Below, piece after piece: positions 5,590-64,000 of a stretch of 64,000 nucleotides of DNA. The notes below the pieces were generated by a model that was not told the origin of the DNA, ran no database searches, and saw nothing but the letters and a program-made list of their open reading frames with translations. The DNA comes from an uncultured Bacilli bacterium (GTDB lineage: Bacteria > Bacillota_I > Bacilli_A > RF39 > UBA660), in NCBI GenBank assembly GCA_947627805.1, contig CANQXB010000001.1, forward strand, positions 24,836 to 88,835, read 5' to 3'. How positions within the stretch are numbered: the first letter of the stretch is position 1; each line of letters begins with the position of its first letter. A program made the translations under genes and the position numbers.

Positions 5590-5629
5590 TATCTTTAATA
5601 AATATTTTTTTATCGAAAGGAGTATTTTC

Positions 5630-6166
5630 TTGGATAATCTTGTAAATTTACTGAGTCAATACTCCTTAGAGGGTATTATTATTTTTATTGTTATGATTAT
5701 TGTAGCTTCTAAATTTATATTTGAAACTATTGATTGGTTGTGGCAAAAAATAAAAATAAAAGTTACTAAAAAAAATGAAGAGCAAGAAAAAACAGAAGAT
5801 ATTGACCATTATTTTGAAAAAATAGATAAAAATTTTGAAGAAATTAATAAACGTTTTGATACAATAGATGCTCAATCGCAGCAAACAAATGAACGTTTAT
5901 CTTTTATAGAAGAACGTCAACAAGAAAATACTCGTTCTTATTTAATTGATGCACATCATAAATTCTGTTATGAAATAAAAGCTATAGATGATATAAACTT
6001 ACAATCTATGGAAAGACGATATATGTATTATAAGACTCAAGGTGGCAATAGCTTTATTAATGAATTAATGCAAGAAGTAAGACAATTACCAAGAGTTAAT
6101 CTTAGTCATCCAATATCAGATATTACCTTAGAAAACATTGATAATGAAAGGAGCAATGATGGCTAG
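5630..6166 (+). CDS. membrane-anchored coiled-coil protein (TTG start)
   Basis: N-terminal TM helix followed by a K/E-rich coiled coil; RBS GAAAGGAG 8 nt upstream of TTG. Confidence 0.45.
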   Translation: MDNLVNLLSQYSLEGIIIFIVMIIVASKFIFETIDWLWQKIKIKVTKKNEEQEKTEDIDHYFEKIDKNFEEINKRFDTIDAQSQQTNERLSFIEERQQENTRSYLIDAHHKFCYEIKAIDDINLQSMERRYMYYKTQGGNSFINELMQEVRQLPRVNLSHPISDITLENIDNERSNDG

Positions 6167-28315: not shown

Positions 28316-29348
28316 CACATTGTTATCCTAAAGGCTTTTTATCCTTTAGTTCTTGCGGTTTCCCGCAAGGTCAGCATATATTATCATCTATTTAATATAA
28401 CTAAATAGAGTCCTTGACTCGTGGATTTATTATATTCTTGAATTAAGCGCTATAAGATATTTGTTATATTTTCTTTCTAGCTTTGGAGTATTAATATTAT
28501 AAATATCTTTTAAGAATTGCAAAGAAGGCGTAGTTGATAGTTCTAAACTATATAAGTCTCTTGATGTATGATAAAGATACCAAGGATAATCTGTAAAATC
28601 TTGAATTTCTTCAAATAATCCTTTTGTCTTTGAAGTAATTTTTACTTTCCCAGCAGTATAACTCCCATCTCCATCATAAAAACCTTTAATAAAACTTAGT
28701 TTAAATACATCTGGGATATTCTTCATTGAAATATTTTTGTAAGTTTTATCAGGAACAATGCTATAATTTTCTAAATCTTCTTTAATTTGTTTAGAAGAAA
28801 ATTCTAATTCTGCTACAGGATATTTACTTTCAACAGTATAATGTTTAATTGGAGCTTCAATTTGAGCTTTTTCTTTGAATTCAATTAACCATTGTTCGTC
28901 TGCTACTTGCAATCCAATTTTTATAGCATTACGATTTTTTCTTATTGTGCCATCTGCCGCAATAAAACCTAAATAATAAGCTGATGTATCATTTAATGTA
29001 TGAAAATAATTATGATTAACTTTGTATCCTCTTTTCATATTTTCAATAACACACTGTTCATGACGATCTCTAATATGAACATTATAAGAATTAAACATTT
29101 TTTTCAACTTATAGGTAGAAATATTAAATTCTCTTTCACAAGCAGCTAAACTATTGCCTTCTTGATAAAATTTTATAATATTACTGTGGTTGACCATTAC
29201 AGGCAAGCATCCTTTCTTCAAGTTTCAAAATCTATGCGTTGCGCGTGTTATAACTTTTAAATTATAACTTCCGCTCGTGTTAGCAGCTAAGCCTTCACGT
29301 TTTTTCAAGGATTTGCTAGTTTAATCGCTCAAACTAGGCCCAAAATTT
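28316..29348 (-). mobile_element. group I intron 1 in the ATPase gene, carrying a LAGLIDADG homing endonuclease
   Basis: 5' splice site after U (GCGCCT|AAATTTTGGGCC) with a 4-bp P1 to IGS GGGC; terminal G in AATGTG|AAAACC; P2 hairpin CTAGTTT..AAACTAG. Confidence 0.7.
28430..29221 (-). CDS. LAGLIDADG homing endonuclease, intron-encoded; paralogue of 27068..27880
   Basis: LGFIAADGTI and IKGFYDGDGS motifs. Confidence 0.8.
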   Translation of the reverse strand: MKKGCLPVMVNHSNIIKFYQEGNSLAACEREFNISTYKLKKMFNSYNVHIRDRHEQCVIENMKRGYKVNHNYFHTLNDTSAYYLGFIAADGTIRKNRNAIKIGLQVADEQWLIEFKEKAQIEAPIKHYTVESKYPVAELEFSSKQIKEDLENYSIVPDKTYKNISMKNIPDVFKLSFIKGFYDGDGSYTAGKVKITSKTKGLFEEIQDFTDYPWYLYHTSRDLYSLELSTTPSLQFLKDIYNINTPKLERKYNKYLIALNSRI

Positions 29349-31340: not shown

Positions 31341-32246
31341 TTATTTAACCCCCGTATTTGAATTATAACCATAGTCACAACTTAAATACGTTTTAATATA
31401 AAATTGTTCTAATTCATTTAATTCTTCTTTATTACATTCTTGAATAACTTCAAAAGTAAATTGATCTAAACCATATTTTAACATTGCTTCATATAATTTA
31501 TTTTTTTCTGGTGTATCAATACCAAGCCCGCATTTACAATGTTGGAGAAAGCGTTCCCTGCAATTAAGACTTTGCCCAATATAACATTCATCAGTTTGTA
31601 TATTAGTTATTTTATAAATACCTGTAACTGCTTCAGTCCCTAATATATTAGCAAATAATTTCTTTGCTTTAGGCTGATAAAATGTTTGCCAAATTAACAT
31701 TGATAAAATACGGGGCTTCCGCAAAACATGACGTATACTTTCTAAGGTTTGTATATCAGCATGTTCCGCGGAAGTCAAGACTAATCTATAATTATCTTTT
31801 TCCTTTTGGAGAATTTCTTCACGATGCGTTGCTTCTACAATAGCTTGTTTTTGTGCTTGATATTGTTCTAATTCATTTTGTAGCTGTTTAGACTCTGCAT
31901 TAATTTTAGTCTTAAATTCTTCAAAATCATTATATAATAAATCTTTTTGTGAAGCTAATGTTCTTTCAAACTCTTCTTTTTTATAAGCATATTCTTGTTC
32001 AAGAGCTTTACTTTTTTCATTATAAGCTGTTTGCGCATTTTGTCGAGCATTATTTATCAGCGCTTTTTGAGCTTCATAATTAGAACTAATTCTACTTATA
32101 TCTTGAAGAATTTGTTCACGTTCCCGCAAAACATTATCATTATTTTCTTGAACAATATTAACGGTTTTTTTACGACCAATTTTATAAAATATTATACCTA
32201 CAAGTACACATAAAATGGAGCAAATAATAATTATAATTAACTCCAT
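31341..32246 (-). CDS. membrane-anchored coiled-coil protein with C-terminal GIY-YIG nuclease domain
   Basis: N-terminal TM helix; about 130-aa coiled coil; GIYKITN...YIGQS...R...H...E GIY-YIG motif. Confidence 0.55.
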   Translation of the reverse strand: MELIIIIICSILCVLVGIIFYKIGRKKTVNIVQENNDNVLREREQILQDISRISSNYEAQKALINNARQNAQTAYNEKSKALEQEYAYKKEEFERTLASQKDLLYNDFEEFKTKINAESKQLQNELEQYQAQKQAIVEATHREEILQKEKDNYRLVLTSAEHADIQTLESIRHVLRKPRILSMLIWQTFYQPKAKKLFANILGTEAVTGIYKITNIQTDECYIGQSLNCRERFLQHCKCGLGIDTPEKNKLYEAMLKYGLDQFTFEVIQECNKEELNELEQFYIKTYLSCDYGYNSNTGVK

Positions 32247-37753: not shown

Positions 37754-38823
37754 CGTATTATCCTATATTTCTATAGGGACTGACTATTTCTTCGCTCTGA
37801 TTTGTCAAATCTTCAACGCGTCCTCTATTTCGAATTACGTATCAATAGTAATCCTACTCCCTCACAACAAGGGATAGTCGATACAGCTTATTTTATATCT
37901 TTATAAGTTTTTCTAAGCGCAATATTATAAATCGTGCTATAGACTTGAGTTAAATTAAGTTGTTTTTGAATTTGTTTTACTGATATTCCTTGGTCGTATA
38001 AATCTCTAATTTTTCTTACTTCATCAGGACTAAATTGTCTTTTGTTATTAGCAGCAACCTCATAAGGATTAGCTTTAGCTCTAGTAGCATGCCATTTTCT
38101 ATTCTCTTCAGTATAATATTCTGGATATACTTCTTTCCAAGTATCAAACCACCAAACTTTTTGTAATCCTCTTTTAGAAATTTTAGTTTTATACTGCTCA
38201 TATACGACTTTAAAAGGAATATGGTCATTATAACATTCTCTAATATACTTAACATCATCCAAAGTCAATAATGCGCGACCATTATTTTCTCCTTTTTGGC
38301 CTGGCTTTCCTTTGCTATCTGAACCACCAGGAGTTGCATTATAGCCATTGTAATAAGAATCATATTGATTAATGTATAATTTTTCAAGACTATCTAAAAA
38401 TTCTTGAGTATATTCATCTTGTGAAATCTCTACTAAAACTTGGAAATCGAAGTTATCCCATCCATATTTTCTTATTGCTTGATGAAATTGACTATTATAA
38501 TCTTGAGCTTGATTATTATATGCAGCATTTTTATGTTGAGACACTCTTCTTTGTATATTAATGCTTTGACCTACATAAACTTTTTGATTAATTTTATTAG
38601 TAAATTTATAAATTCCTATCATACACTACCTCCTTCATCGTTTATATATGAAAGTGATAATGTACAAATAACTCAATTTTACCCAAAGATATAAAACCTT
38701 GCCACGAGATTATCTTCGCCTAAACATATTTTGACGTATATGTGTAACGGTCAGACTTCCTCGTTAGCCTCATAAAGAGACCCCTGCGATAAACAGGAAA
38801 AAAGGATAAGGGCAATTCCATTT
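37754..38823 (-). mobile_element. group I intron a in the topoisomerase gene, carrying a GIY-YIG homing endonuclease
   Basis: Exon A ends ELIITEG|; intron ends GGATAATACG|GATTCT; P7-type GATTA...AATAGTC. Confidence 0.65.
37888..38622 (-). CDS. GIY-YIG homing endonuclease, intron-encoded
   Basis: MIGIYKFTNKINQKVYVGQS...R...H...E GIY-YIG motif; own RBS AAGGAGG. Confidence 0.8.
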   Translation of the reverse strand: MIGIYKFTNKINQKVYVGQSINIQRRVSQHKNAAYNNQAQDYNSQFHQAIRKYGWDNFDFQVLVEISQDEYTQEFLDSLEKLYINQYDSYYNGYNATPGGSDSKGKPGQKGENNGRALLTLDDVKYIRECYNDHIPFKVVYEQYKTKISKRGLQKVWWFDTWKEVYPEYYTEENRKWHATRAKANPYEVAANNKRQFSPDEVRKIRDLYDQGISVKQIQKQLNLTQVYSTIYNIALRKTYKDIK

Positions 38824-40646: not shown

Positions 40647-41357
40647 TTAATCCTCCAACTTTACTACACTGCGATATAACATATGAAACTTATCTTGAAT
40701 TGTGCGGTCATCGTGCATATGTCCAAAATAGTATGCTTTAAGATTAATTTCATCTAAAATTTTCTGAATACCATGTTCCATACTTTTGTCTGTTGGACCT
40801 ATATATTTTAAGAATAAATCAGATACATCTTTTTCAATGCGGATAGGATAAGTGTGAGCAACAACATAAAACTCATTATTCAATTTATATTTTTTAATAT
40901 TCCGCATTAATGAGCCCATTTCTGAAGATGTTAATTGCTCATGTGGTTCATAAATAATTCCATTTAGTTGACGATACACTCCGTCAATAGACCATGCTCC
41001 TGGAATAAAAATAAATACTTTCCCATCAATATGTACTATATCTCCTGCATCTTTGACGTACCAGATATTAGGATATTTATCCTGAACCAAAAAATGATCT
41101 TTATAAGTTAAATGCCATCCTTCTTGTCCTTCATGATCTCGCCAATAACGCGTATCATGATTTCCCCGCAAAATTATAAAAGTACAAGAATATTTTTTAC
41201 AAACTTTTTTAATTCCTCCAAATACTTTACCGCCATACTCTGCACCAAAGTCGCCGCAAATAATCATATAGTCTTTATCAGTTAATTCTAAATCTTTTAA
41301 CCTATTCTTTAATTCCGCGGCTTCCCCATGTGTGTCACCTGTTAAATAAATTGTCAT
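40647..41357 (-). CDS. calcineurin-like metallophosphoesterase (paralogue 1 of 3)
   Basis: GDTHG...ICGDFG...GNHD motifs. Confidence 0.65.
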   Translation of the reverse strand: MTIYLTGDTHGEAAELKNRLKDLELTDKDYMIICGDFGAEYGGKVFGGIKKVCKKYSCTFIILRGNHDTRYWRDHEGQEGWHLTYKDHFLVQDKYPNIWYVKDAGDIVHIDGKVFIFIPGAWSIDGVYRQLNGIIYEPHEQLTSSEMGSLMRNIKKYKLNNEFYVVAHTYPIRIEKDVSDLFLKYIGPTDKSMEHGIQKILDEINLKAYYFGHMHDDRTIQDKFHMLYRSVVKLED

Positions 41358-42159
41358 TTTTTGTTACCTTTTCTTTAATCAAATGATATAATATTTCTTC
41401 CATCATAATGACAGTACGTGTACAGTTAACACTTTTATGATAATAACAAAAAGTATCTGCCATATTATCTATATGATGTATATAATAATCAGCTAAGACT
41501 TGAGCTTGCTTTAAATTATACATTTTTTTGTTACGTTTTAAACATAATATATTTTGCATCACATCATTATCTTTTATTTTAATACATTCTGCATAAGGAT
41601 AGTTACTAGTATATTTCTTAATAAAATAATCAATTCTTGCTAAATGAGAAAGTTGTTTAGGGTCAAATCCATATTTATTAATATATTCCATTCTACTTGG
41701 ATAATTGTGAGTTAAAGCATGATATTTTTGATAAGCCATACCCCGCATAGCTTTTACTGCTTGATAAGGATTAACTCTTGCAATTGCTTCCCTCATAGTA
41801 ATAAAATCATTCCAATAAGGACAATATCTTGGATTAACTATTGTCCATTCAGTAAAAAATACTTCAACAAAATTAATATTACATTTTAAAACAATTTTAA
41901 GATATTCCCGCGCATCTTTTACATCACAATGTTCATTATTATTCATAATAAAAGTACGACTAATAGGCGGTTTGTTTAAAGCAAGTTCTCGCAAACTAGG
42001 CACAATTAATGCTTTAGAATCAATATCAGATTCTTCATCAGCAACTCCATAATTTTGTGAACCTTGTAAAGCTATAAAAAATAAATCTAAATCAGGTCTT
42101 TTTTCTTCAACTTCATTCCAATGTTCATATAATCTATTTTTTATTTTATCATCTTCCAT
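41335..42159 (-). CDS. Pol-beta superfamily nucleotidyltransferase (minimal NTase fold)
   Basis: LQGSQNYGVADEESDIDS = GS...D.D motif. Confidence 0.5.
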   Translation of the reverse strand: MEDDKIKNRLYEHWNEVEEKRPDLDLFFIALQGSQNYGVADEESDIDSKALIVPSLRELALNKPPISRTFIMNNNEHCDVKDAREYLKIVLKCNINFVEVFFTEWTIVNPRYCPYWNDFITMREAIARVNPYQAVKAMRGMAYQKYHALTHNYPSRMEYINKYGFDPKQLSHLARIDYFIKKYTSNYPYAECIKIKDNDVMQNILCLKRNKKMYNLKQAQVLADYYIHHIDNMADTFCYYHKSVNCTRTVIMMEEILYHLIKEKVTKNDNLFNR

Positions 42160-44103: not shown

Positions 44104-44766
44104 CTACCACTTAAACTTATCACCTAACAATTCTTTATATTCTTTTTCAAAAGCTATCTTTGCTCTTTGAGCAGATATATCAATATGTCCATCAGGTTTT
44201 AAAATTAAATCTTGTTGAGGTCGAGCAATAACTTTTTCCCAATCTGTAAAAGGCGCTTGCAAAAAACGTCTATTATATTTTGGTAATTGCGAAAAACGGT
44301 TAGTAATATATTTAAAACTTACTAACTTAAAATTATTTATTTCAAGACACGTACTAATATAATTTGGTTTGTCAATTATATTATTATGAAGATGAGCATA
44401 TACGTTAATTTGGTCATCAAATACATTTTGAGGAATATGACTAATACAAATTTTATCATTGATATAAATAGGATATTCATATATAATATCAAAATATTGT
44501 TTAAATAATGTTATATCTGTATGTTTATCATGATTGCCAAACATAAATATTGTTTTACATTTAAAATTATTCATTAAATATAAAAATTCAGTATTCCCCC
44601 AATCACCTAAAACCCAAAGCTCATCTTCTTCATGTAATATTGTAGACCATTCAATAAAACTATTTACTAAAAATTGATCATGCATTTTAATATTTGAAAA
44701 TTGTGGGCGAGCCCATTCAATAATATTTTTATGAGAGAAATGAGGGTCACCTAAGAAAAACTTCAT
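44104..44766 (-). CDS. calcineurin-like metallophosphoesterase (paralogue 2 of 3)
   Basis: GDPHF...LGDWGN...GNHD. Confidence 0.65.
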   Translation of the reverse strand: MKFFLGDPHFSHKNIIEWARPQFSNIKMHDQFLVNSFIEWSTILHEEDELWVLGDWGNTEFLYLMNNFKCKTIFMFGNHDKHTDITLFKQYFDIIYEYPIYINDKICISHIPQNVFDDQINVYAHLHNNIIDKPNYISTCLEINNFKLVSFKYITNRFSQLPKYNRRFLQAPFTDWEKVIARPQQDLILKPDGHIDISAQRAKIAFEKEYKELLGDKFKW

Positions 44767-45572
44767 TTAAAAAACTCTTTCCATTTATATCCATAACTAC
44801 TTTGAGATTTCCCCATACAAGCACGACGAATATTGCCTCCGCCATTAGCATTTTTCCCTATTTTTAAAGCTGCTTCAGTATAGTTACTATATTCTGCAAT
44901 TATTTTACCAGTTTTTGAATCAATTTGTTGAATAATACGTTTTTTAGGTTTTTGTAAAGTTGCATAATCTTCTACTTTACACCATCTAAAATTATAAGCT
45001 GTATGTTGTATATTATTAATTGCTAATTCTATTGCAGAGCGTGTACCATGCAAAGCTGCTGCCGCTGCTTTTATAGATGGATACTGTTTAATAATTTCTA
45101 AGGTATCTTTATCCAATTGATAGATCGGAATTGATGTTGTATTAGGTTTATTGTAAACACCTCGCTTACCTATTACTTTTCTAACAACACGTCTATCGCA
45201 TCCAAAATAATTAGCGGTTTGCTGGATATTTTGTAATTCTTTATATTTGGTCCAAATAGCGTCATAATCATATTGAGTGTTTCCATCGCCACCACGAGTA
45301 GCATTATATCCATTAGAATAAGTATTTAACTTATTAATCCAAAATTGTTCTCGTTCATCAATTTCTTCTTCATTGCATACTTCTAAAGTTGTAATAAAAA
45401 AATTATCTTCTCCATATTTTTTTATTGCATCATATAATGGACGTTTTTTATTTTGACTAGAATTAATATCACTTAAATGTTTTTTATATCTAGTCTGAAC
45501 ATCTGACATAGTTTTGCCTACATATTGTTTTCCATTTATTTTATTGGTGATACAATAGATAAATCCATTCAT
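44763..45572 (-). CDS. free-standing GIY-YIG homing-endonuclease-like protein
   Basis: GFIYCITNKINGKQYVGKT...R...H GIY-YIG motif plus a C-terminal DNA-binding region. Confidence 0.7.
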   Translation of the reverse strand: MNGFIYCITNKINGKQYVGKTMSDVQTRYKKHLSDINSSQNKKRPLYDAIKKYGEDNFFITTLEVCNEEEIDEREQFWINKLNTYSNGYNATRGGDGNTQYDYDAIWTKYKELQNIQQTANYFGCDRRVVRKVIGKRGVYNKPNTTSIPIYQLDKDTLEIIKQYPSIKAAAAALHGTRSAIELAINNIQHTAYNFRWCKVEDYATLQKPKKRIIQQIDSKTGKIIAEYSNYTEAALKIGKNANGGGNIRRACMGKSQSSYGYKWKEFFK

Positions 45573-46954: not shown

Positions 46955-48145
46955 TTAAACTGCCTTAAAATTATAAATAGGAGTTAATTGCTCAGTTATA
47001 ACAAAACCATTACGAGTTAGGAGTTCTTCTAATGCTTTACTACTATTATATGTATTAGGAGCTTCATCTAATGTAGACTCAGTAACACAACTAGAATAAA
47101 TTCCATTCATTGATGCCTTATATGACTCTATTTGCAATAGTAGATGTGCGGCTGTACGTGACATTACACGACCAGCCCCATGCGGCAAACTATTATTCCA
47201 ATCTTCGTTCTCACACCCTTCGATAATAAGTAGTCCATCCCGCATATTTAACGGAACTAGACATCTCGCGTTTGTACAGTCGATAGCACCTTTTCGCACT
47301 ATATGATTATCTACATCAACGTAATTATGTAAACTTGTTGCAACTATAGAATAATTATAATAACCTATTAACATATTGGCCATAGCAATATGACTTACTA
47401 AAGACCAATTTGCACAAACTAACATATCATTTAAATAATCATCTAAATCATTACCTTCAATATAAGCTAAATCAGACTCTAAAGCATACTTTTCAATTTG
47501 TATTCCATGTAACATATCTAACATCTGGCTAATTAATTGTTCTTGATGCGTCTCTTTCCCATATGAAATAACAGCTTCCCGCATTGTTTTAAGTAGGTTA
47601 CCTTTACTTTTGGATTTTTCTACAGCAATTTTCTGATAAAAATTACAAACTTGTACTCCTAAATTGCGGGAACCACTATGTATAACAAGATAAACACGAC
47701 CATTGTCATCTACATCTAATTCGATATAGTGATTGCCTCCTCCAAGAGTGCCTTGAGAATTGATAATACGTTGATGATTACTAATATAATCCCAACACAT
47801 CAATTCATTATAATCAAAAGAAGAAACAGAATGATTATGAATATTTCTTCCTGTTGGAATAACAGAACGTACTTTTTTATCAAATTTATCTAAATCTGTC
47901 ATATCTTCTAAGAACCAAGGGGTTTCAAATAGCGATATGCGGCAACCAATATCAACTCCTACAGTATTAGGACAAATCTTATCACTAAATGTAGAGGTAA
48001 AACCAACACAAGACCCTTTACCCGCATGCGCATCTGGCATAATGCGGATTTTCTGGTCCACATACGCAGGACTTGCCGCAATTTCTGCAACCTGGTCTAA
48101 TAGTTTTTTGGTTTTATTTAAAGCAAAATTTTTAACATCAGTCAT
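46955..48145 (-). CDS. rtcB: RtcB RNA 3'-phosphate/2',3'-cyclic-phosphate ligase
   Basis: MPDAHAGKG, GVDIGC, GGGNHYIE and HSGSRNLG RtcB motifs; start moved to ATG 48145 behind RBS AGAAAGGGG. Confidence 0.8.
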   Translation of the reverse strand: MTDVKNFALNKTKKLLDQVAEIAASPAYVDQKIRIMPDAHAGKGSCVGFTSTFSDKICPNTVGVDIGCRISLFETPWFLEDMTDLDKFDKKVRSVIPTGRNIHNHSVSSFDYNELMCWDYISNHQRIINSQGTLGGGNHYIELDVDDNGRVYLVIHSGSRNLGVQVCNFYQKIAVEKSKSKGNLLKTMREAVISYGKETHQEQLISQMLDMLHGIQIEKYALESDLAYIEGNDLDDYLNDMLVCANWSLVSHIAMANMLIGYYNYSIVATSLHNYVDVDNHIVRKGAIDCTNARCLVPLNMRDGLLIIEGCENEDWNNSLPHGAGRVMSRTAAHLLLQIESYKASMNGIYSSCVTESTLDEAPNTYNSSKALEELLTRNGFVITEQLTPIYNFKAV

Positions 48146-48178
48146 AAAAAAAATCCCCTTTCTTAACAATATAAATAT

Positions 48179-55220: not shown

Positions 55221-55251
55221 AAATAAAAAAAGTGCGGAAACCCGCACTTTT
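55221..55251. terminator. bidirectional rho-independent terminator downstream of the Ro60-like gene
   Basis: AAAAAAA-GTGCGG-aaac-CCGCAC-TTTT. Confidence 0.65.
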
Positions 55252-56707
55252 AATAATGAATTGCTTGAATTACTTCTTCTAGTTTTAATCCTTGGTTTGC
55301 CTCCATATATGGGAACAATTTAAATACTTTATCATTTAGTGCGGTCATTAGATGAACATAAGGATTATTTGGATTAGCAATCTGTCCTTTGTAATTGCCT
55401 AAGTCAAAACTAAATATATCTGTACGACCATATTTTGTACAATAACGATTATAAGAATTAACAGTATTCTCACGACTATTATAATAATGGTCTTCCATTG
55501 TTTGCATATCACTAATAAGAAAGATGCGGTCAACTTTTTCATCTAATTGATTGAATGCTTTTGGAACATTAGTGCCATATCCTAGATTTTCTTCATCAAT
55601 CATATGTTCAATACTAACAAATGGATTAAATCTAATTGCATTTGTATCATAATTTTTCTTTTTAGCTGAAGTGCCAAATTTAATGAATACACTTTCAGGA
55701 TTTTGAATCAATAGAGTCGCCGCATATACTGCGCCAACTTCTTTAAGAGTAATAACACTCTTAGGTGACATGCGACAATCCATAGACCCAGATATATCAA
55801 GCATAATAGCTGTGCGGCCATCCAGCTGGGGAATATTTCCAACAGCCGCATAGAATGCTTGTTGAAGAGCATCAATTAAATTACCTGGCACAATATCTTT
55901 AATCTCACGATAAGCCGCATAAATTTGATATGGAAATACTAATGATTTATAGATTGCTATTTGATTACATACTTGGCCGCAAAGATATTTAGTAATCCAC
56001 TCTCTTGAAACTCCGCTTTGTAAAATATTGCGGAGATTGCGGATGAGCGCTAAATATCCAAGTTGCTTTTTCTCAACTAGATTTTGCCAAGCCTTACAAC
56101 GTTCTTCTTCTGACTGCTGTTGAGAAATATTACGTTCCCACGTATCAATTTCTGAATATTGTTCATATACAAACTTATCAATATGCGGGGAAGTTGCATG
56201 AGTAATTCTAATTAAATCATGCATATTATATTTTTTACCCTTTAGCTTATATTTTGCTAATTGGTAACCTGTTAACTGTGAGAGATAATCGCAAATACCT
56301 CGAACCACCGCATGAGATCTCTTTTGTCCCATCATCTCAATTGCCGCGAATAGTTCTGCCGCGTCATCAGGTCTATGCGGGAAGTGCGCATAGAACTGAC
56401 GTTTATTAGCAAATTGGAGGTCATTAAGATACGCCGCTACTAAAGTAGCCGCGCTCCGCATTCCAAGTTCATTACGAGCAAAGTAAGCGCCCTTTGCCGC
56501 AAATTCTGGCCCCTTAGTATCAATTACTTTTTGAGTCAGATCAAGGAAACGAGTTGTTTGTTCTGTTTCTGTTTCATAAAATTTATCTGAGAGGAAAGAT
56601 GAAAACATAAAATTAATCCAATCCTCTGTTGGATTTTTTTGATACAACTCTGCGCCCTCGTATGATATTGTTTTAGGTGCTTCTTGCTTCATATTAAATT
56701 TGGACAT
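55250..56707 (-). CDS. Ro60-like RNA-binding protein (TROVE domain plus C-terminal vWA domain with MIDAS motif)
   Basis: 485 aa; MIDAS LDISGSM with downstream GYGTNV and LISDMQT metal-site equivalents; N-terminal alpha-helical-repeat region consistent with TROVE; assignment from motif layout only. Confidence 0.55.
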   Translation of the reverse strand: MSKFNMKQEAPKTISYEGAELYQKNPTEDWINFMFSSFLSDKFYETETEQTTRFLDLTQKVIDTKGPEFAAKGAYFARNELGMRSAATLVAAYLNDLQFANKRQFYAHFPHRPDDAAELFAAIEMMGQKRSHAVVRGICDYLSQLTGYQLAKYKLKGKKYNMHDLIRITHATSPHIDKFVYEQYSEIDTWERNISQQQSEEERCKAWQNLVEKKQLGYLALIRNLRNILQSGVSREWITKYLCGQVCNQIAIYKSLVFPYQIYAAYREIKDIVPGNLIDALQQAFYAAVGNIPQLDGRTAIMLDISGSMDCRMSPKSVITLKEVGAVYAATLLIQNPESVFIKFGTSAKKKNYDTNAIRFNPFVSIEHMIDEENLGYGTNVPKAFNQLDEKVDRIFLISDMQTMEDHYYNSRENTVNSYNRYCTKYGRTDIFSFDLGNYKGQIANPNNPYVHLMTALNDKVFKLFPYMEANQGLKLEEVIQAIHY

Positions 56708-58598: not shown

Positions 58599-59423
58599 TC
58601 AATAGTACCTAGCGAAAATTTCATCATTCTCTACATAGGCAAAATCATCACATACACACCGCATCTGTGAGACTTCTTCATCGCCCCAATCTTCAAAGCT
58701 ATCTTTATGATAGTGGCCATGAATCCAAGGAATTTGCGGGAACTTGCGATAGACACCTTCTAGGATGCGCTGTCCCGCGGTTGTCGCATCGAAGGGCAGG
58801 TCATATTCTTTATTATAATTTAAAGAAATATGCGATGGTGCATCATGAGAAACAATTACATCTGGAGTAAAACTCATTGTTGCGAGAACCAATTTCACAC
58901 CTGTATAATCAACATCCTCATTTTCCCACCAAGAACGATGATTACACCGCACACTCTCAAAACGACTGCGGTAAAGATAATATCTCTCCATATCTTCTGG
59001 ATCACTAGGGTTGGCTGGCGTATGCCACAGGTCATGCGAAGCTGCACCAGGAATCAAAAAGAATTTTTGACCCGCAATTTCACCCGCCCATGGTCTATCT
59101 ATAATATAAATGTTATCAAAATACTCACCATACATTACGAATTGCCGCACAGGATAATTACCAAGATAGATACTATCCATAGCGCCATATGCATCTCGAT
59201 CATCATGGTTGCCGCACATTGCATAGATAGGATAACCAAGGTTATTTAGGAAGTGCGCATATCGCAATTCTCTTTGCATATCTTCAATTGTGTGGTCAGG
59301 AGAAAGAACTCCAAAAGGAATACCAAAGTCACCAGCAATGATTACCGCGTCAGCTTGATGTTTCTGCGGCCACTCCCGCAAAACTGGGCAGCCATGAATA
59401 TCGCCTGTAATGTAAACTGTCAT
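58599..59423 (-). CDS. calcineurin-like metallophosphoesterase (paralogue 3 of 3)
   Basis: GDIHGC...IAGDFG...CGNHDD motifs. Confidence 0.65.
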   Translation of the reverse strand: MTVYITGDIHGCPVLREWPQKHQADAVIIAGDFGIPFGVLSPDHTIEDMQRELRYAHFLNNLGYPIYAMCGNHDDRDAYGAMDSIYLGNYPVRQFVMYGEYFDNIYIIDRPWAGEIAGQKFFLIPGAASHDLWHTPANPSDPEDMERYYLYRSRFESVRCNHRSWWENEDVDYTGVKLVLATMSFTPDVIVSHDAPSHISLNYNKEYDLPFDATTAGQRILEGVYRKFPQIPWIHGHYHKDSFEDWGDEEVSQMRCVCDDFAYVENDEIFARYY

Positions 59424-59445
59424 TCTCTCTCCTTTCTTTTATTAT

Positions 59446-59474
59446 ATTATAACATTAAAAAATATTACTGTCTA
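59446..59474 (-). promoter_or_regulatory. sigma-A-type promoter, TAGACA, 17 nt, TATAAT with TGn
   Basis: Minus-strand reading TAGACAgtaatattttttaatgtTATAAT. Confidence 0.5.
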
Positions 59475-59493
59475 ATAGTTTTTTAGAATGCGG

Positions 59494-60438
59494 CTATCCT
59501 AGATTTATAAATGCACGAGCTGCCGCAAAGGTCTCTCGTTGAAGAGCTGCGAAATTAATAGTCGGGTTCTTCCATTTCTTACAAATGAGAGCTATTTCAT
59601 CAAGAACCGCATCTCTCCAAACCATTTGTAGGTACATTCCAATATGCTTATTTGTTTTAGTACTGAATTGTTCGTTAAGAGTATTCTCAATTTTTGCGAT
59701 AGCTTTCCCGCATTCTTCATCAGTGACACAATATTTGACAATCTCTTTTTCTGTCTCTCCTGCGGGAATTACTTTCTTGCTCTTGGATTTGTCTTGTCGA
59801 TACTGCGGCCGCACATATTTACCAATTTCATAGCGGCCATATTTATTAAGATAATCAAGTCGCCGCACAACCAAACCTTCTCCAATAGCGCCATTGAGCA
59901 TTAGGAAAGTATTTTTTTCAGCCTCAGCCGCAATATCTTGTGTCGTTGGATTTTCAAGAGTTTTAAATGGTACATAATAAGGATATTTTTCTTCTCCATA
60001 CATGTCCCAATAGACATCAAGAAGCTCTCGCCATTCCGCATCTTCTAGGTAGCGGCCTGTGGATGAATCATAAATATCAAACACCCACAAGTGTTCAAGT
60101 GCTAGAGTTGGATCATAAGATTTAATGCTTCCGATAAATTTGCGGGAACCGAGCCATTCTCCATATATAATATAGGAAGGATTATCTGTTAGCACTTGCC
60201 GCAAAACAACCTTTTCAGAAGTATTTACATTAGACCACCAGAGAGCAAAATCTGCGTTGTCTTTCTCTATAGTGATGGTGCGAGTGCGGGAGCCTGCGCA
60301 AAATTCGCCATCATTGAACCAGACACAAGAATTAGTGCCATCCAGCTTTGGAGAAATTGTGACAGTGCCATTGAGAAGTCCTTCTACATCAGGAGACTCC
60401 AGTTTTTCAACATGATTATATGAACGATAAGTAGTCAT
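59494..60438 (-). CDS. RNA ligase, Rnl2-like covalent nucleotidyltransferase
   Basis: Motif I SPKLDGTN, motif III YIIYGEWLGS, motif IV GEGLVVRRL, motif V region; no OB/DNA-ligase-type C-terminal domain. Confidence 0.55.
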   Translation of the reverse strand: MTTYRSYNHVEKLESPDVEGLLNGTVTISPKLDGTNSCVWFNDGEFCAGSRTRTITIEKDNADFALWWSNVNTSEKVVLRQVLTDNPSYIIYGEWLGSRKFIGSIKSYDPTLALEHLWVFDIYDSSTGRYLEDAEWRELLDVYWDMYGEEKYPYYVPFKTLENPTTQDIAAEAEKNTFLMLNGAIGEGLVVRRLDYLNKYGRYEIGKYVRPQYRQDKSKSKKVIPAGETEKEIVKYCVTDEECGKAIAKIENTLNEQFSTKTNKHIGMYLQMVWRDAVLDEIALICKKWKNPTINFAALQRETFAAARAFINLG

Positions 60439-60464
60439 TGCGCTTCCTTTCTTTCGATGGTTAT

Positions 60465-60493
60465 ATTATATCATAGGAGAAAAAATCAGTCAA
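60465..60493 (-). promoter_or_regulatory. sigma-A-type promoter, TTGACT, 17 nt, TATAAT with TGn
   Basis: Minus-strand reading TTGACTgattttttctcctatgaTATAAT. Confidence 0.5.
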
Positions 60494-60530
60494 GATTTTT
60501 ATTAGGGTTAATTGTGTGAAATATTGCGGG

Positions 60531-60559
60531 TTGACTAAAGTTGCGGCGTATGGTATAAT
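60531..60559 (+). promoter_or_regulatory. plus-strand promoter, TTGACT, 17 nt, TGnTATAAT
   Basis: TTGACTaaagttgcggcgtatggTATAAT. Confidence 0.55.
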
Positions 60560-60602
60560 ATAGTTATTGAAAGGGCGCAAGACTAATAGATAGGAGTTCC
60601 CG

Positions 60603-60779
60603 CATGAATGACTGGAAAGAAGATTATGTGTATTATCAATATCTAAAGTATCGCGAGTGTCAAGAAGAGTATAAGCGCATCCAACAGCAACAAGAATTAA
60701 TTGATGAGTCAGATAATTGGGATAATTGGGAAACTGCTTTGGTTTATGATGCTTTTGGAGAGCCGCTTGTGGTTTAAAC
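60603..60779 (+). CDS. small hypothetical protein (58 aa), absent from the ORF track
   Basis: ATG behind RBS TAGGAG; MNDWKEDYVYYQYLKYRECQEEYKRIQQQQELIDESDNWDNWETALVYDAFGEPLVV. Confidence 0.35.
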
Positions 60780-60780
60780 G

Positions 60781-61395
60781 TTGATAGGAGATAGTTATAT
60801 GGAGATTATGCAGTATAAAAAACAAAATAATATGGTCTGTGTTGTTACTTTTAATAATATGGGTCATTATTGCGGGTATGTTGGTGTAAATAAATATCAT
60901 CCTTTCTTTGAGGTTGATTATCAAGACTTAGGGTGCGGCATCTCTGTACATGGTGGTCTTACTTATTCTGGAAAAGAAATTGGTGGAAAAGATATTGCGG
61001 ATGGTCAGTATTGGTTTCTTGGGTTTGATTGCGCGCATGCGGGTGATGTATGTAGTGAGGATGGTATTGATGCTTTTGGAGATGCGGTTTATGTGTGGAC
61101 CGCGGAATTGGTTATGCGGGAATGTGAGAATTTAGCTAGTCAGTTAAAGAAAATTTATGATGATTGTAAGAGTGAAATTTTAGAAATTGATACTGTCCAA
61201 GAGACAATGGAATCTATCTTAACTCAATTGTTGGAACTTGGTGAGACTGCGGACAAGTGTGAAGATAAAGCTGATGGTCCTATTAAATTGAGTTGGTATA
61301 AATTTAATGTTTTGCTTGATTTAGTAATTAGTACAGCAATGGATGCGGCTGATATGTTAGAAATTATACGTTGCCAAGAGCAAGGTAAGAAATAG
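60781..61395 (+). CDS. hypothetical protein
   Basis: 204-aa ORF followed by a terminator. Confidence 0.5.
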   Translation: MIGDSYMEIMQYKKQNNMVCVVTFNNMGHYCGYVGVNKYHPFFEVDYQDLGCGISVHGGLTYSGKEIGGKDIADGQYWFLGFDCAHAGDVCSEDGIDAFGDAVYVWTAELVMRECENLASQLKKIYDDCKSEILEIDTVQETMESILTQLLELGETADKCEDKADGPIKLSWYKFNVLLDLVISTAMDAADMLEIIRCQEQGKK

Positions 61396-61396
61396 G

Positions 61397-61426
61397 GTCT
61401 CATGAGAGGCCCTTATTTTTTCGCGC
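61397..61426 (+). terminator. rho-independent terminator
   Basis: GGGTCTC-atga-GAGGCCC followed by TTATTTTTT. Confidence 0.65.
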
Positions 61427-61493
61427 GGGCGGTCAGGTAAGATATTTCTTTAACTGCCGCATAATATTTTTTATCTGACCAGGCGGCCGCGTT

Positions 61494-61537
61494 TCTCTTA
61501 AGATAATTGTTAGAGAAGAAGTCTGGTAAGATAAGTG
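61494..61537. repeat. 44-bp direct repeat (left copy) bracketing the iteron array
   Basis: TCTCTTAAGATAATTGTTAGAGAAGAAGTCTGGTAAGATAAGTG; 41/44 identical to 62034-62077. Confidence 0.7.
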
Positions 61538-61750
61538 CAAGAGGAGATGAGTTTAGGAAAACCAGATAAAAAAAGTTAGGGGAATATGTTAAAAAAGTTA
61601 GGGGCCTAAAAGACAAAGACAAAGATATATAAAAGACATGTCATCTCTCTTTTAGTTTAGTATTTTTATCATGCTAAAACATGATATTTGATATTATATA
61701 TTAAAAATGATAAAAGAAATTTCGGAGAGACTATAAATAAACAGATAGTA

Positions 61751-61966
61751 AAAAATATAACACATTATTAGTAGGGTAATAAAAAATATAACACATTATA
61801 AAAAAAATATAACACAACTTATGCAAAAATATAACACATTATAAAAAAAATATAACACATTATTAGGAGTTATTTATTGACCCGATCAAAAATATAACAC
61901 ATTCCGATCAAAAATATAACACAACCCGCCGAAAAATATAACACAACCTATGCAAAAATATAACAC
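61751..61966. repeat. iteron array: 9 direct copies of AAAAATATAACAC(A), spaced mostly 21-22 bp; probable origin or initiator-binding site
   Basis: Copies start near 61751, 61782, 61803, 61825, 61846, 61888, 61910, 61932 and 61954. Confidence 0.7.
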
Positions 61967-62033
61967 CCTAAAAGTAATAAGTAATAAGTAATATAAAAGT
62001 AATGTCTCAACTTCTCTCTTAAGATAATTGTTA

Positions 62034-62077
62034 GAGAAGAAGTTTGATAAGATGAGTGTAAAAGAAGTACGGACTAA
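62034..62077. repeat. 44-bp direct repeat (right copy) bracketing the iteron array
   Basis: TCTCTTAAGATAATTGTTAGAGAAGAAGTTTGATAAGATGAGTG. Confidence 0.7.
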
Positions 62078-62098
62078 TTTGACATTATATATTTTTAT

Positions 62099-62127
62099 TG
62101 ATATAATTATATTAATTAAAATCAAAG
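62099..62127 (+). promoter_or_regulatory. plus-strand promoter, TTGACA, 17 nt, TATAAT
   Basis: TTGACAttatatatttttattgaTATAAT upstream of ORF 62147. Confidence 0.55.
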
Positions 62128-62146
62128 TTGAATATAAGGAGTATTA

Positions 62147-62878
62147 ATGGATAAAATTTTCATTAGTGTTGCAGAAGATCATATGAAGGAGAAGAATTAT
62201 AATCCTAAAGCTGTGGTTATTGCACAAGATTTAGGTTATATTCAAGAAGGTAATAGGGTTATTAATCGTCGAGAATTTACAACTTATCTTCAGCGAATAT
62301 TAAAAATAACTAAATATAAATGTAAAAAAATAATTGATACTTTTGTAGATACTGGTATTTTATTACAACATGATAATGACAGTAATATATTAATTATGCC
62401 AGCATTAAAAACAAATTTTCTAAAATTATTAAGAAGTACAACTAAATTTTGTATAGATGGTATAAGCGATTTTGCTTTTAAAGTATATTGTTATTTATTT
62501 AATAAATATAATATTAATCAAACTTATTGTAAACATCATAAAGAAAATTTTTTCTTTAGTAAAAAGCAGATATTAGCAGATTTAGGCTATAGTCGAGGAC
62601 AAGATAAATTAGTACAATTAACGAATGTTTTAACACTTTTACAAGATTTAAAAATGATTAATTATAATGAAAAAGGTATTGGTAGACCTGGTAACCATGG
62701 TACTTATCATGAACTTTATAAAGTGAATGAATATAGTCCTACACAAGTTAGAGCTTTAAATGTTACTATTGAAGAATTAGGGGTAGATAAATGTCCAGAA
62801 TTAGTTAAAGAACGAGATATGTTAGTAGAAAAAGAAAAATTTACGTTACCGGAGAAAAATGAAGGGTTTCAATTTTAA
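62147..62878 (+). CDS. hypothetical protein adjacent to the iterons, candidate replication initiator or iteron-binding protein
   Basis: 243-aa ORF with RBS AAGGAG; the functional guess rests on position only. Confidence 0.5.
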   Translation: MDKIFISVAEDHMKEKNYNPKAVVIAQDLGYIQEGNRVINRREFTTYLQRILKITKYKCKKIIDTFVDTGILLQHDNDSNILIMPALKTNFLKLLRSTTKFCIDGISDFAFKVYCYLFNKYNINQTYCKHHKENFFFSKKQILADLGYSRGQDKLVQLTNVLTLLQDLKMINYNEKGIGRPGNHGTYHELYKVNEYSPTQVRALNVTIEELGVDKCPELVKERDMLVEKEKFTLPEKNEGFQF

Positions 62879-62906
62879 AAGGAGAATAGTATGTATAAAG
62901 TTAAAT

Positions 62907-62966
62907 ATTATAAAGATTTTCTTATACCTTAAAGAATTATAAAGATTTTCTTATACCTCAAAGAAT
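62907..62966. repeat. tandem 30-bp direct repeat (2 copies)
   Basis: ATTATAAAGATTTTCTTATACCT(T/C)AAAGAA twice, head to tail. Confidence 0.6.
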
Positions 62967-63915
62967 TTGTGGTGCGCACATATAACAAGCGTTGTCAACA
63001 AAAATATTTTAAAATACATAACCATAACAAATTCTCGAACCTTCAAATTTATTATTTTGTTAAAAGTTAGCAATTTTAATGTTCAAACATACAATATTTT
63101 GTATTTTTTCAATATGTTTTTGATACAATATTTAGTATAGAATAGCGCAGTTAGTATAATTTTTTTTCAACCTACCAAATACTCGAGAGATAATAAAGTT
63201 AATAAATTTTGATAATGGATTTTGTTTATATTTAATATATATAAATTTTATACATATTTAATTTATTTTTAATATTTAAAAAATGATAAATCTTGAATCC
63301 TAGAAAATTTATAATAGGTGCGGAGCTGTGGAAAACTCAATAAAATTAATGGAAAACTTGTTGAAAGCTATTGAATTTTCAATGGAAAACTTGTTGAAAA
63401 CTTGTGGACAATCGTCTGAAGAGACAGGGCTAGCATAATTTTTCCTCAACCTGACAAGGACACGAGAGATAACAAATTCAATAAATTTTGATAGCAAATT
63501 GCGGGCCTCTGTGATATTAACTTTTTCGCTAGCTAAAACATTCATCTTACAGGGTTGCCGCGTATCAGTACCACCCTTATTACTATTTTCATTTCTACTT
63601 TTGGAATTGGGCTAACTTTAGTTAGTTAAGAATTGTTAAAAATAATTTTCAAGTTTGGGACTCCTAAATAGTTTTCATTTTCACTTTTGGAGACTCACGA
63701 AAAAAGTTTCATTTTAAGTAGAGGTTAGTAGCGCGAGAATCAGCCGAAGAGAATCTCATTTTCATTTCCAAAAGAAGTTTCAGTTCAAAATTTGTCTTTA
63801 CAGATAATAAAAAGTATTGTATAATATAGTCATCAAGAGAGGATAAGCCAGCTTGATAGAAGGAACAAAGTGTGGCTGTCCTGTGGTCTGAACTTTTTAA
63901 CTAGTTAAAAAAGTT

Positions 63916-63944
63916 TTGACAGTATAAAAATTTTATATTATAAT
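63916..63944 (+). promoter_or_regulatory. plus-strand promoter, TTGACA, 17 nt, TATAAT
   Basis: TTGACAgtataaaaattttatatTATAAT near the window end. Confidence 0.45.
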
Positions 63945-64000
63945 ATATGTGTAAGAAAGAGAAAAGAAAGAATAGTTAAAATATAATAAGCACTCCAAGA

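Follow-up and report, generated by a model that had tools for sequence, protein, structure and literature searches.

A phased repeat array beside the gene for a predicted RepE-like protein: a candidate iteron-type replication origin in a distant SPβ-like phage

We analysed a 64,000-nucleotide stretch of DNA from an uncultured Bacilli bacterium (hereafter the window) and found at 61.5-62.1 kb a locus that is probably an iteron-type replication origin, followed by an open reading frame (62147-62878) that would encode its cognate origin-binding, Rep-like initiator. The locus combines nine phased direct repeats, a conserved junction with short A-rich microrepeats, a perfect promoter and the gene for a 243-aa protein predicted to contain tandem winged-helix domains.

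The first-pass annotation of this DNA had described nine direct copies of a short motif, and nine exact copies of AAAAATATAACAC were indeed present on the + strand at 61751-61966, starting at 61751, 61782, 61803, 61825, 61846, 61888, 61910, 61932 and 61954. Successive starts are 31, 21, 22, 21, 42, 22, 22 and 22 bp apart, so that the 21-22 bp phasing and the double gap (42 bp) given there were recovered, except that the first interval, of 31 bp, is off phase too. No copy of AAAAATATAACAC with up to one mismatch occurred outside the array on either strand of the 64-kb window; shuffled sequences held a mean of 0.59 copies, and nine copies were reached in 0 of 100 shuffles. The array was the best-scoring tandem repeat of the whole window and also came first in a scan for phased repeats. 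It consists of a distal cluster of five iterons (61751-61858, + strand) with spacers of A and T only, and a proximal cluster of four (61888-61966, + strand) that follow one another in strict 22-bp steps and whose spacers (ATTCCGATC, AACCCGCCG and AACCTATGC) contain G+C. The array region is the most A+T-rich part of its neighbourhood (GC 0.22-0.29), and no polymorphism in iteron copy number was seen among three samples with the same phage.

The last iteron is joined to CCTAAAAG, after which come 3-4 short A-rich microrepeats. This junction with its microrepeats occupies 61967-62003 (+ strand; CCTAAAAGTAAT AAGTAAT AAGTAAT ATAAAAGTAAT) and completes what we call module B; it may act as a track for single-strand binding or unwinding. 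The microrepeats reach only the 89th-91st percentile for duplex instability, and other DNA of the locus is less stable than they are. The least stable stretch, 62060-62160 (99.0-99.6th percentile of the window), begins ~95 bp past the last iteron and overlaps a TG-extended consensus sigma-70 promoter at 62079-62107 (+ strand; TTGACA-17-TATAAT, 12/12). The gene follows at 62147-62878 (+ strand), with the ribosome-binding site AAGGAG at 62136-62141. On the other side, a terminator-like hairpin with a T-run (61394-61413, + strand) ends the upstream gene (60781-61395). Terminator, plus-strand promoter and the 243-aa reading frame beside the array all agree with the first-pass annotation. An Rfam search of 60400-64000 gave no match at E <= 1 and so no support for a known RNA element.

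Duplicated GTTAGGGG boxes had been reported on both flanks of the array, but they sit to the left of it only. They form a second small iteron module (module A) that the earlier reading overlooked, with two copies of AAAAAAGTTAGGGG at 61569 and 61591, 22 bp apart (61569-61604, + strand); the homologous place in the related locus L003 holds four copies of AAAAAAGATATACA. Module A and the main array share the CCTAAAAG-plus-microrepeat junction (61605-61639 and 61967-62003). After module A it reads CCTAAAAGAC AAAGAC AAAGAT ATATAAAAGAC AT on the + strand, a string nearly identical to that after module A of L003. No second paralog that could bind module A was found in the window or in L003. A 53-nt box lies at 61494-61546, where it starts TCTCTTAAGATAATTGTTAGAGAAGAAGT, and again at 62015-62067 (both + strand; 89% identical, 41/44 over the first 44 nt). 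The 44-bp direct repeat claimed earlier is therefore real, with its second copy 19 nt away from the 62034-62077 assigned to it. Homologous boxes follow both modules in L003, and a degenerate third copy (GTCATCTCTCTTTTAGTTTAG at its start) can be read from the sequence at 61640-61665 (+ strand), the position of the box after module A in L003. A decayed promoter cassette at 61686-61715 (+ strand; TTGATA-17-TAAAAG) is 80% identical to 62077-62106 and has as its counterpart in L003 the promoter at 6247-6274. Since the same box stands after each iteron module in L003, we regard the boxes as part of a duplicated module. The 53-nt boxes and the two GTTAGGGG repeats derive from tandem duplication of a unit made up of iterons, microrepeats, box and promoter.

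Upstream of both modules, a long, imperfect, GC-rich hairpin at 61424-61491 (strand not assigned) folds as DNA with -13.9 kcal/mol (z = -2.7; equalled by 1 of 200 shuffled sequences), and L003 carries, on a reading of its sequence, an analogous GC-rich inverted repeat at the matching position. The 53-nt boxes were rejected as conserved hairpins (z = -0.4 in the window and +1.5 in L003). Significant hairpins occur at the box position in L004 (z = -3.8), L001 (-3.4) and L016 (-2.8).

The bracketing repeats had also been proposed to promote recombination or to mark a terminal-repeat boundary, a role that the data do not support: they are parts of the duplicated module, and two independent contigs identical to the window (L022 and L023) read through the boxes and continue unbroken for 8.9 kb more. 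We consider it extremely unlikely that the repeats are a packaging (pac) site or terminal-repeat boundary with the protein as a small-terminase-like recognition factor. Repeated boxes are known small-terminase targets, as at the pac sites of SPP1 and P1, and the long relative contigs L008, L009, L010, L017 and L018 end 1-6 kb downstream of the gene. However, every contig runs across the array, no gene for a large terminase adjoins it, the predicted fold is RepE-like rather than TerS-like, and the boxes are internal to a duplicated module found in L003 too.

The 243-aa protein belongs to an unnamed family with 269 representatives (representative clusters in metagenomes). An AlphaFold2 model built from a 60-sequence alignment (pLDDT 94.1, pTM 0.90) contains two winged-helix domains. 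It superseded an earlier model from 9 sequences (pLDDT 71.5) that had no significant PDB match and whose search returned RctB and the RepE-iteron-DUE complexes 8aan and 8ac8. RepE54, the initiator of mini-F in complex with iteron DNA, accounted for each of the best 16 PDB matches of the 60-sequence model (E 3e-4 to 4e-3, probability 0.97-1.00, 220-238 aligned columns); structurally the match is moderate, with TM 0.33-0.44 and ~10% identity. RepA_N initiators were also among the matches of this model. The protein is thus predicted to have a RepE-like fold of two winged-helix domains (WH1-WH2).

Sequence profiles gave fainter signals. Matches to Pfam Rep3_N and HTH_36 were weak; Rep_3/Rep3_N (PF01051) did not match the window protein at the gathering threshold and reached a sub-threshold E of ~0.008 in 2 of 60 family members. 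DUF6945 (PF22182), which covers the second winged-helix domain, was passed at its gathering threshold of 28 bits by members P0004 (30.2 bits) and P0005 (29.0 bits) and matched 19/60 members at E <= 0.05, the window protein being without a match. Several family members matched PHROG replication-initiation families and DnaD-like loaders weakly. With the DnaD-like loader profiles (PHROG 2514, 186 and 7882), the window protein reached E = 0.007 over 65 residues and 4/60 members matched weakly, which falls short of significance for membership among DnaD-like helicase loaders. The commonest weak PHROG match was ScpB (14/60 members); tandem winged helices occur also in transcription factors and ScpB, which, like the moderate structural match, counts against the origin reading. 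Searches by tblastn found no match in phages for the window protein and three distant family members, and none in plasmids for the window protein. An IMG/VR scan with the single protein likewise gave no match, while a scan with the alignment gave 3 loci. A sequence profile search of the PDB with A1 and A2 returned nothing meaningful, and no informative domain fusions were present among the long family members scanned.

We then compared the locus with its relatives. In 11 of 11 distinct relatives with upstream DNA, the homolog lay directly behind its own phased array, which ranked top among the repeat windows of the locus in 8 and tied or second in the other 3. Same-orientation repeats at ~21-22 bp were found in the window and likewise in the relatives. 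The results showed that the repeat core varies along with protein divergence. The window and L003 (70% protein identity) have the core ATATAACAC in common and L004 and L009 (96%) the core CCTAT, whereas L008, at 82-83% identity to L004/L009, has TGTCTGCTAA against their CCTATGCTAA. At protein identities of <=53% the cores are unrelated (GTACCAC, the iteron core of L001; TGATACAC; CGTATAT; GTTACGAAAAGTAACA; TTCACAATTTTTACTATAG). Clustering in a recognition helix of the substitutions between L008 and L004/L009 was no more than suggestive and did not count as evidence. A candidate initiator gene in cis, with repeat cores that co-vary with the protein, is what these 11 loci display, and binding of the array by the adjacent protein, as first proposed, is strongly supported by the comparison.

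The architecture is also conserved, in the order distal cluster, gap, four proximal iterons, CCTAAAAG and 3-4 A-rich microrepeats. The proximal cluster usually has four iterons, as it does in L001, L004, L008, L009 and L021, and the CCTAAAAG junction is conserved in 7 distinct loci and takes variant forms in 3 others. In the window and L001 the order is array, promoter, gene; in L003 and L004 the promoter precedes the array. This lack of a conserved promoter position argues against a simple operator, and conservation of the iteron-microrepeat unit indicates a function independent of promoter geometry.

Both points bear on the possibility, which we consider unlikely, that the protein is an early transcription regulator without a replication role and that the arrays are operators that, when bound, would repress or road-block its own transcription unit along with the early genes further downstream. 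The gene is preceded by a perfect promoter of early type, in a region rich in strong promoters, and in L003 and L004, where the best promoter is upstream of the array, transcription would run through bound sites. Tandem winged-helix folds also occur in RPC62, TFIIE and BlaI-type repressors. Inverted iteron pairs, present in L001 and L003, resemble dimer operators. Against a regulator, 9-12 same-orientation sites with two-turn phasing in two clusters are far above the usual need of an operator, and the best 16 structural matches are to an initiator and include no repressor. The regulator and origin readings are not exclusive, as plasmid Rep proteins autoregulate too.

The first-pass annotation had left origin and partition site side by side. 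The origin is favoured because of the RepE-like tandem winged-helix fold predicted for the protein, the weak initiator and DnaD-like matches, and the lack of a partition NTPase gene nearby. It is very unlikely that the array is a centromere-like site to which the adjacent protein binds for partition, for instance to maintain a plasmid prophage. An array of phased direct repeats ahead of the gene for a small DNA-binding protein does resemble parC/ParR-type centromeres such as that of the R1 system. However, the gene lists of the window and its relatives show no ParA-, ParM- or TubZ-type NTPase gene adjoining the locus, and the predicted tandem winged helix is unlike the Par adaptors (ParR and ParG are ribbon-helix-helix proteins, ParB is a helix-turn-helix protein). 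The phage, moreover, has the look of a large virus of the SPβ type that encodes a replisome of its own.

The window derives from a phage distantly related to SPβ, in which the replication genes follow the yorG-to-yorL order. Its full SPβ-type replisome comprises Sak4, DnaB, primase, RecJ, DnaE, gyrase and ligase, and the order Sak4, DnaB, primase, RecJ, DnaE corresponds to yorG to yorL; a protein matching phrog_4680 was placed, by its position, at yorH. DnaE shares 40% identity with YorL, the phage also encodes a YotB-like metallophosphoesterase, and relatives are ~130 kb long. An HMM of the family, run against every SPβ ORF, found no homolog of the winged-helix protein in that phage. The replication process of SPβ was described as not yet investigated in a 2021 review (PMC8270828). 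The DnaB-type helicase, primase and DnaE polymerase genes lie at 16-26 kb, the replisome genes being at least 36 kb from the array, with no helicase loader gene adjacent to it. This distance, the missing loader gene and the lack of a homolog in SPβ speak against the origin reading. Apart from the winged-helix protein, nothing recognisable as an initiator or loader turned up in the window, and the DNA at 61400-62900 matched no deposited phage in near or distant search modes.

GC skew, one of the checks suggested with the first-pass annotation, was run and proved uninformative: the cumulative minimum, near 60 kb, falls on a 4-kb island of + strand genes, and the trend turns back again past the island, so that the skew tracks gene orientation. 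We rejected it as an origin locator.

A further candidate lies 1.2 kb downstream, where non-coding DNA at 63.2-63.4 kb might be the true origin, with an extreme A+T tract and DnaA-box-like repeats served by host DnaA and the iteron/protein pair as an accessory or control. The least stable 60-bp duplex of the 64 kb is at 63224-63283, four same-strand boxes (TGTGGAAAA, AATGGAAAA twice, TGTGGACAA) follow it in a layout repeated in L003, and the region, though non-coding, is 77% conserved with L003; L004, L016 and L020 have 5-10 DnaA boxes within 130-250 bp, 3-4 kb downstream of the gene. However, only two of the window boxes are within one mismatch of TTATCCACA, DnaA boxes are not enriched in the window (15 found, 22.6 expected), L022, which extends the window, has no further cluster, and most relatives lack such clusters in the DNA covered. 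A phage with its own DnaB and primase needs an origin-specific factor, for which the winged-helix protein is the sole candidate. We consider the downstream site an improbable origin.

The iteron-type origin that we favour has its closest parallels in mini-F oriS/RepE and other iteron plasmids (RK2 oriV/TrfA, R6K/π, pPS10 RepA, P1 oriR/RepA), where direct repeats about two helical turns apart likewise stand beside a gene whose product has two winged-helix domains. The match of the predicted fold to RepE54 spans almost the entire chain, and, as in RK2 and F, short A-rich elements come in repeated form after the iterons, resembling plasmid DUE repeats. In iteron plasmids, Rep binds one strand of the DUE repeats (PMC4081077, PMC10602881). 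Autoregulation, as in those plasmids, is plausible here, and inverted iteron pairs occur in L001 and L003. The locus also differs from the plasmids. No inverted half-iterons of the kind that form an autorepression operator at a plasmid rep promoter were found in the region upstream of the gene in the window. By sequence, the window protein falls outside Rep_3. Its setting is a virulent-looking phage of ~130 kb with its own DnaB, primase and DnaE, whereas the plasmids rely on host DnaA, DnaB and DnaC. In contrast to F, P1, RK2 and pSC101, no DnaA boxes adjoin the iterons; the nearest (<=1 mismatch), at 63327 and 63403, are 1.36 kb off, across the gene. The iterons are also shorter than those of plasmids, a 13-16 nt core in a 21-22-bp unit that always begins with an A5-7 tract, the last one is fused to the conserved CCTAAAAG junction, and no second, incC/incA-like iteron set follows the gene.

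Phages λ (ori/O) and SPP1 (oriL/oriR with G38P) encode early origin-binding proteins that act at repeated sites and recruit the helicase; they have ~4 repeats, inside the initiator gene or other genes. The candidate protein resembles O and G38P as a phage-encoded, probably early origin-binding protein with repeated sites, but here 9-12 repeats occupy a dedicated intergenic region upstream of the gene, and similarity to the λ O-like and DnaD-like families is only weak (E 0.003-0.007). In the basal unwinding system of bacterial oriC, DnaA boxes are followed by DnaA-trios. The present locus is similar in having double-strand sites directly before a short tandem motif that could guide an initiator onto one strand, and differs in its winged-helix (not AAA+) protein and in a microrepeat period of 6-8 nt (not 3). 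A role of this kind for the microrepeats is purely hypothetical.

The proposed mechanism would run as follows. The early sigma-70 promoter at 62079 would express the 243-aa protein, with winged-helix domains arranged as in plasmid RepE. Monomers would bind the nine AAAAATATAACAC copies side by side on one helix face, 21-22 bp (two turns) apart, and in-phase A-tracts would add curvature to the array. The four proximal iterons would set the protein beside the CCTAAAAG junction and AAGTAAT microrepeats, ~100 bp from the A+T-rich promoter stretch, and melting may begin near these elements. By analogy with RepE and TrfA, the initiator may also hold one melted strand, after which the phage's DnaB-type helicase, primase and DnaE polymerase would be loaded. 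Occupied iterons would probably throttle transcription of the initiator gene too.

A bolder interpretation, tentative and on balance doubtful, is that the family is an unrecognised class of initiators, with a RepE-like fold and no detectable sequence relation to known Rep families. Its origins would follow a fixed grammar in which CCTAAAAG links four phased iterons to 3-4 A-rich, strand-asymmetric microrepeats. These would give the same protein a single-stranded track that it recognises by sequence, so that a winged-helix system would mirror DnaA-box/DnaA-trio unwinding. Tandem modules with different cores (GTTAGGGG and ATATAACAC in the window; GATATACA in L003) might then be traces of past switches in origin specificity between relatives that co-infect a cell, or make such switches possible.

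The system is of a familiar kind, an iteron origin with its initiator, here apparently built on an undescribed protein family. The locus offers a concrete origin-plus-initiator candidate for a gut-associated branch of SPβ-type phages, and a likely role for an unnamed family that in part overlaps Pfam DUF6945. Natural iteron/protein pairs at 96%, 83%, 70% and <=53% identity provide material on how winged-helix initiators change specificity, and the conserved iteron-microrepeat junction provides a specific hypothesis of origin melting. Once cloned, the module might be turned into a replicon part or a "per"-type decoy for phage interference in uncultured Bacilli.

Upstream of the gene for the 243-aa winged-helix protein, we found nine exact plus-strand copies of AAAAATATAACAC (61751-61966), starting at 61751, 61782, 61803, 61825, 61846, 61888, 61910, 61932 and 61954, so the nine-repeat array noticed in the first-pass annotation is real. 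With up to one mismatch allowed, the motif occurred nowhere else in the 64 kb; in shuffled sequence it averaged 0.59 copies, and 0/100 shuffles attained nine. The spacings of 31, 21, 22, 21, 42, 22, 22 and 22 bp therefore define two clusters, a distal one of five repeats and a proximal one of four at exactly 22 bp. This main array ranked first by score among the tandem repeats of the window and was also the top window in a clustered 10-mer scan. Two copies of AAAAAAGTTAGGGG, 22 bp apart, were located further left at 61569 and 61591.

Both repeat sets have the same ending, in which the final repeat runs into CCTAAAAG and then into short A-rich tandem units (microrepeats). The junction and microrepeats read CCTAAAAGAC AAAGAC AAAGAT ATATAAAAGAC in the small left set, module A (61605-61639), and CCTAAAAGTAAT AAGTAAT AAGTAAT ATAAAAGTAAT in the main array (61967-62003), and CCTAAAAG occurs at only these two sites in the window. 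Each microrepeat track is followed by a copy of a box, TCTCT.TTAAG.TAATTGTTAGAG, full at 62015 and degenerate at about 61640, and an extra full copy at 61494 stands ahead of all other elements. After the box comes a promoter cassette, perfect at 62077-62106 and decayed (80% identical) at 61686-61715. The long flanking repeat previously described does exist (53 nt, 89% identical, 41/44 over the first 44), but its second copy lies at 62015-62067 and not at 62034-62077; the terminator-like hairpin (61394-61413), the 12/12 TG-extended promoter (62079-62107) and the 243-aa ORF (62147-62878) were as claimed. Judged by sequence, the "bracketing" repeats belong to a module (iterons, microrepeats, box and promoter) that has been duplicated in tandem. 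Besides its collinear match, window 61910-62122 (proximal cluster, box and promoter) aligned with 6094-6285 of L003, a relative whose protein is 70% identical, where module A, box and promoter lie, and this match across modules confirms the tandem duplication. The box folded no better than shuffled sequence. Module A itself (window 61569-61639; L003 6071-6180) is a smaller iteron set with another core and the same CCTAAAAGAC microrepeat junction; the core is GTTAGGGG in two copies in the window versus GATATACA in four copies in L003, and neither encodes a second paralog able to bind it.

The repeats had also been suggested to mark a terminal-repeat boundary. Contigs identical to the window read through the array and boxes and continue for 8.9 kb, so these elements are not genome ends. 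Five independent contigs of relatives (L008, L009, L010, L017 and L018), of which three measure 128-134 kb, stop 1-6 kb beyond the winged-helix gene on its downstream side, a hint that the non-coding zone there contains a fixed genome end in those phages, or a repeat that breaks assembly.

We compared the neighbourhoods of homologs with protein identities from 96% down to 22%. A phased array was present directly upstream of the gene in 11/11 distinct loci with at least 250 bp of upstream sequence (window, L003, L001, L004, L009, L008, L010, L021, L016, L017/L018 and L019), and it ranked first among the repeat windows of its locus in 8/11 and was tied or second in 3/11. The repeat core was ATATAACAC in the window and L003, GTACCAC in L001 and CGTATAT in L010; the core or unit was TGATACAC in L021, CCTATTATAA / CCTATGCTAA in L004 and L009, and TGTCTGCTAA in L008. 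It was GTTACGAAAAGTAACA in L016 (period 32-33 bp) and TTCACAATTTTTACTATAG in L019 (period 32 bp), and L017/L018 carried weaker TAATAGAGT-type repeats. Proteins of 96% and 70% identity shared a common core, at 53% or less the cores were unrelated, and at 82-83% they differed at four central positions. Such tracking is what would be expected of a specific protein-DNA recognition pair, and this covariation among relatives strongly supports the earlier proposal that the array is bound by the neighbouring protein. The proximal cluster comprised four repeats in the window, L001, L004, L008, L009 and L021. Its last repeat was fused to CCTAAAAG, or to CCTATAAGA / CCTAAGATAA in distant members, and was followed by 3-4 microrepeats (AAAGAC, AAAGAT, AAGTAAT, AAGTTAT, AAGATT or TAAACAT). 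Inverted iteron pairs were present in L001 and L003; the window had none.

The 243-aa protein gave no significant match to Pfam and a weak DnaD-like match to PHROG (E = 0.007). It has nine close homologs, and an exhaustive profile search (E ≤ 1e-3) of a library that carries no names or annotation extended the family to 269 representative clusters; all 14 homologs from word-indexed searches, where source names are reported, were unnamed. Among 60 diverse members, 19 had at least a marginal match to DUF6945 (Pfam) in the second domain, above threshold for two, and weak matches were obtained to a ScpB PHROG (14/60), replication-initiation PHROGs (at least 5/60) and DnaD-like loaders (4/60). With nine sequences as input, AlphaFold2 gave a mediocre first model; the model from a 60-sequence alignment (pLDDT 94.1, pTM 0.90) predicted two winged-helix domains and, after them, a helical tail. 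With the latter, the best 16 Foldseek matches in the PDB were all RepE54, the mini-F initiator as a monomer on iteron DNA (E 3e-4 to 4e-3, probability 0.97-1.00, 220-238 aligned columns), indicating a RepE-like predicted fold. TM scores were 0.33-0.44, values that a somewhat different orientation of the two domains would be expected to give. Staphylococcal RepA_N initiators were also among the matches, while RctB and RepE-iteron-DUE (DNA unwinding element) complexes were matched only with the first, weaker model. At BLAST sensitivity, no homolog was found in deposited phages and plasmids, and the SPβ genome contained none. One locus, L010, encodes two tandem winged-helix paralogs (5112-5717 and 5989-6852, 30% identical) with an iteron array between them.

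Origin function is the best-supported reading of the 61.5-62.1 kb array, and we hold it with moderate confidence. It is favoured by the predicted RepE-like fold, by nine to twelve sites all in the same orientation, by a local A+T maximum (GC 0.22-0.29) and by the lack of another initiator candidate, since the window yielded no further recognisable initiator or helicase loader. A pure operator should hold a fixed geometry to its promoter. In the window and L001 the best promoter separates the array from the gene, whereas in L003 and L004 it is upstream of the array and no comparable promoter stands between array and gene; what is conserved is instead the iteron-microrepeat unit. Neither a partition function nor a terminal-repeat boundary was supported. 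In RK2 and F, two-winged-helix Rep proteins bind iteron double-stranded DNA and one strand of repeated DUE elements, every one of which is needed (PMC4081077, PMC10602881), and by analogy the phage microrepeats are a plausible counterpart of these repeats. Their duplex stability reached only the 89th-91st percentile, and the least stable duplex at the locus lies over the promoter (62060-62160). The minimum of the cumulative GC skew, near 60 kb, coincides with the switch to a 4-kb plus-strand gene island, and beyond this island the skew turns negative again, so that it is of no use in placing the origin.

A competing origin-like feature lies downstream at 63224-63411. There the 60-bp duplex with the lowest stability in the window (63224-63283) precedes four DnaA-box-like repeats on one strand (63327-63411). 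The layout recurs in L003, and in three relatives DnaA boxes are densely clustered 3-4 kb downstream of the gene for the winged-helix protein. However, the DnaA boxes of the window are weak and not enriched, and its extension through the identical contig L022 yielded no further cluster. The roughly 1.1 kb that follows the gene (62900-64000) has no plus-strand ORF of 60 aa or more, yet is 77% identical to L003 (8154-8801); it gave no Rfam match. A 29-bp unit is repeated in tandem at 62907-62967, a direct repeat of 63 nt has its copies at 63152-63214 and 63431-63493, and two promoters, at 63797-63825 and 63916-63944, are near-perfect. The stretch may serve as a second origin element assisted by DnaA or hold a set of small RNA genes. 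In the three relatives with dense clusters, L004 (5943-6072), L016 (10796-11046) and L020 (4625-4854), non-coding DNA holds 5-10 DnaA boxes each (TTATCCACA, many perfect). A cassette of about 65 nt with a promoter (TTGACA-17-TATAAT plus flanks) is repeated at several places in the window, for example at 59420-59485 (-) and 63907-63975 (+), and is 80-85% conserved in distant relatives (L004, L005, L007 and L009), above neighbouring coding DNA.

The window is a low-G+C phage genome without a DNA match in deposited phage genomes; its relatives were found in rabbit-gut assemblies, in bins labelled "uncultured Bacilli", and among IMG/VR contigs of about 130 kb. DnaE, RecJ, Toprim primase and DnaB follow the order of SPβ yorL, yorK, yorJ and yorI, a phrog_4680-matching protein is likened to yorH by position, and DnaE shares 40% identity with the YorL of SPβ-type Bacillus phages. 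A Sak4-like protein, gyrase A and B, DNA ligase, anaerobic ribonucleotide reductase, tail fibre and lysis genes are also encoded. The window further carries an RNA-repair-like set of RtcB ligase, TROVE/Ro-like RNA-binding protein, Rnl-type RNA ligase and nucleotidyltransferase (46955-48169, 55250-56707, 59494-60438 and 41335-42159) and three tRNA genes (42436, 46801 and 49864). Homing-endonuclease-type ORFs (HNH, two LAGLIDADG and three GIY-YIG) are unusually numerous and scattered across the replication and nucleotide-metabolism region (12602-13525, 27068-27880, 28430-29221, 31341-32246, 37888-38622 and 44763-45572). A 2021 review described SPβ replication processes as uninvestigated (PMC8270828). 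The arrangement at this locus is the classical one of iteron/Rep systems; its protein family does not belong by sequence to known initiator families. It includes a conserved iteron-microrepeat junction and occurs in a phage group for which no origin had been described.
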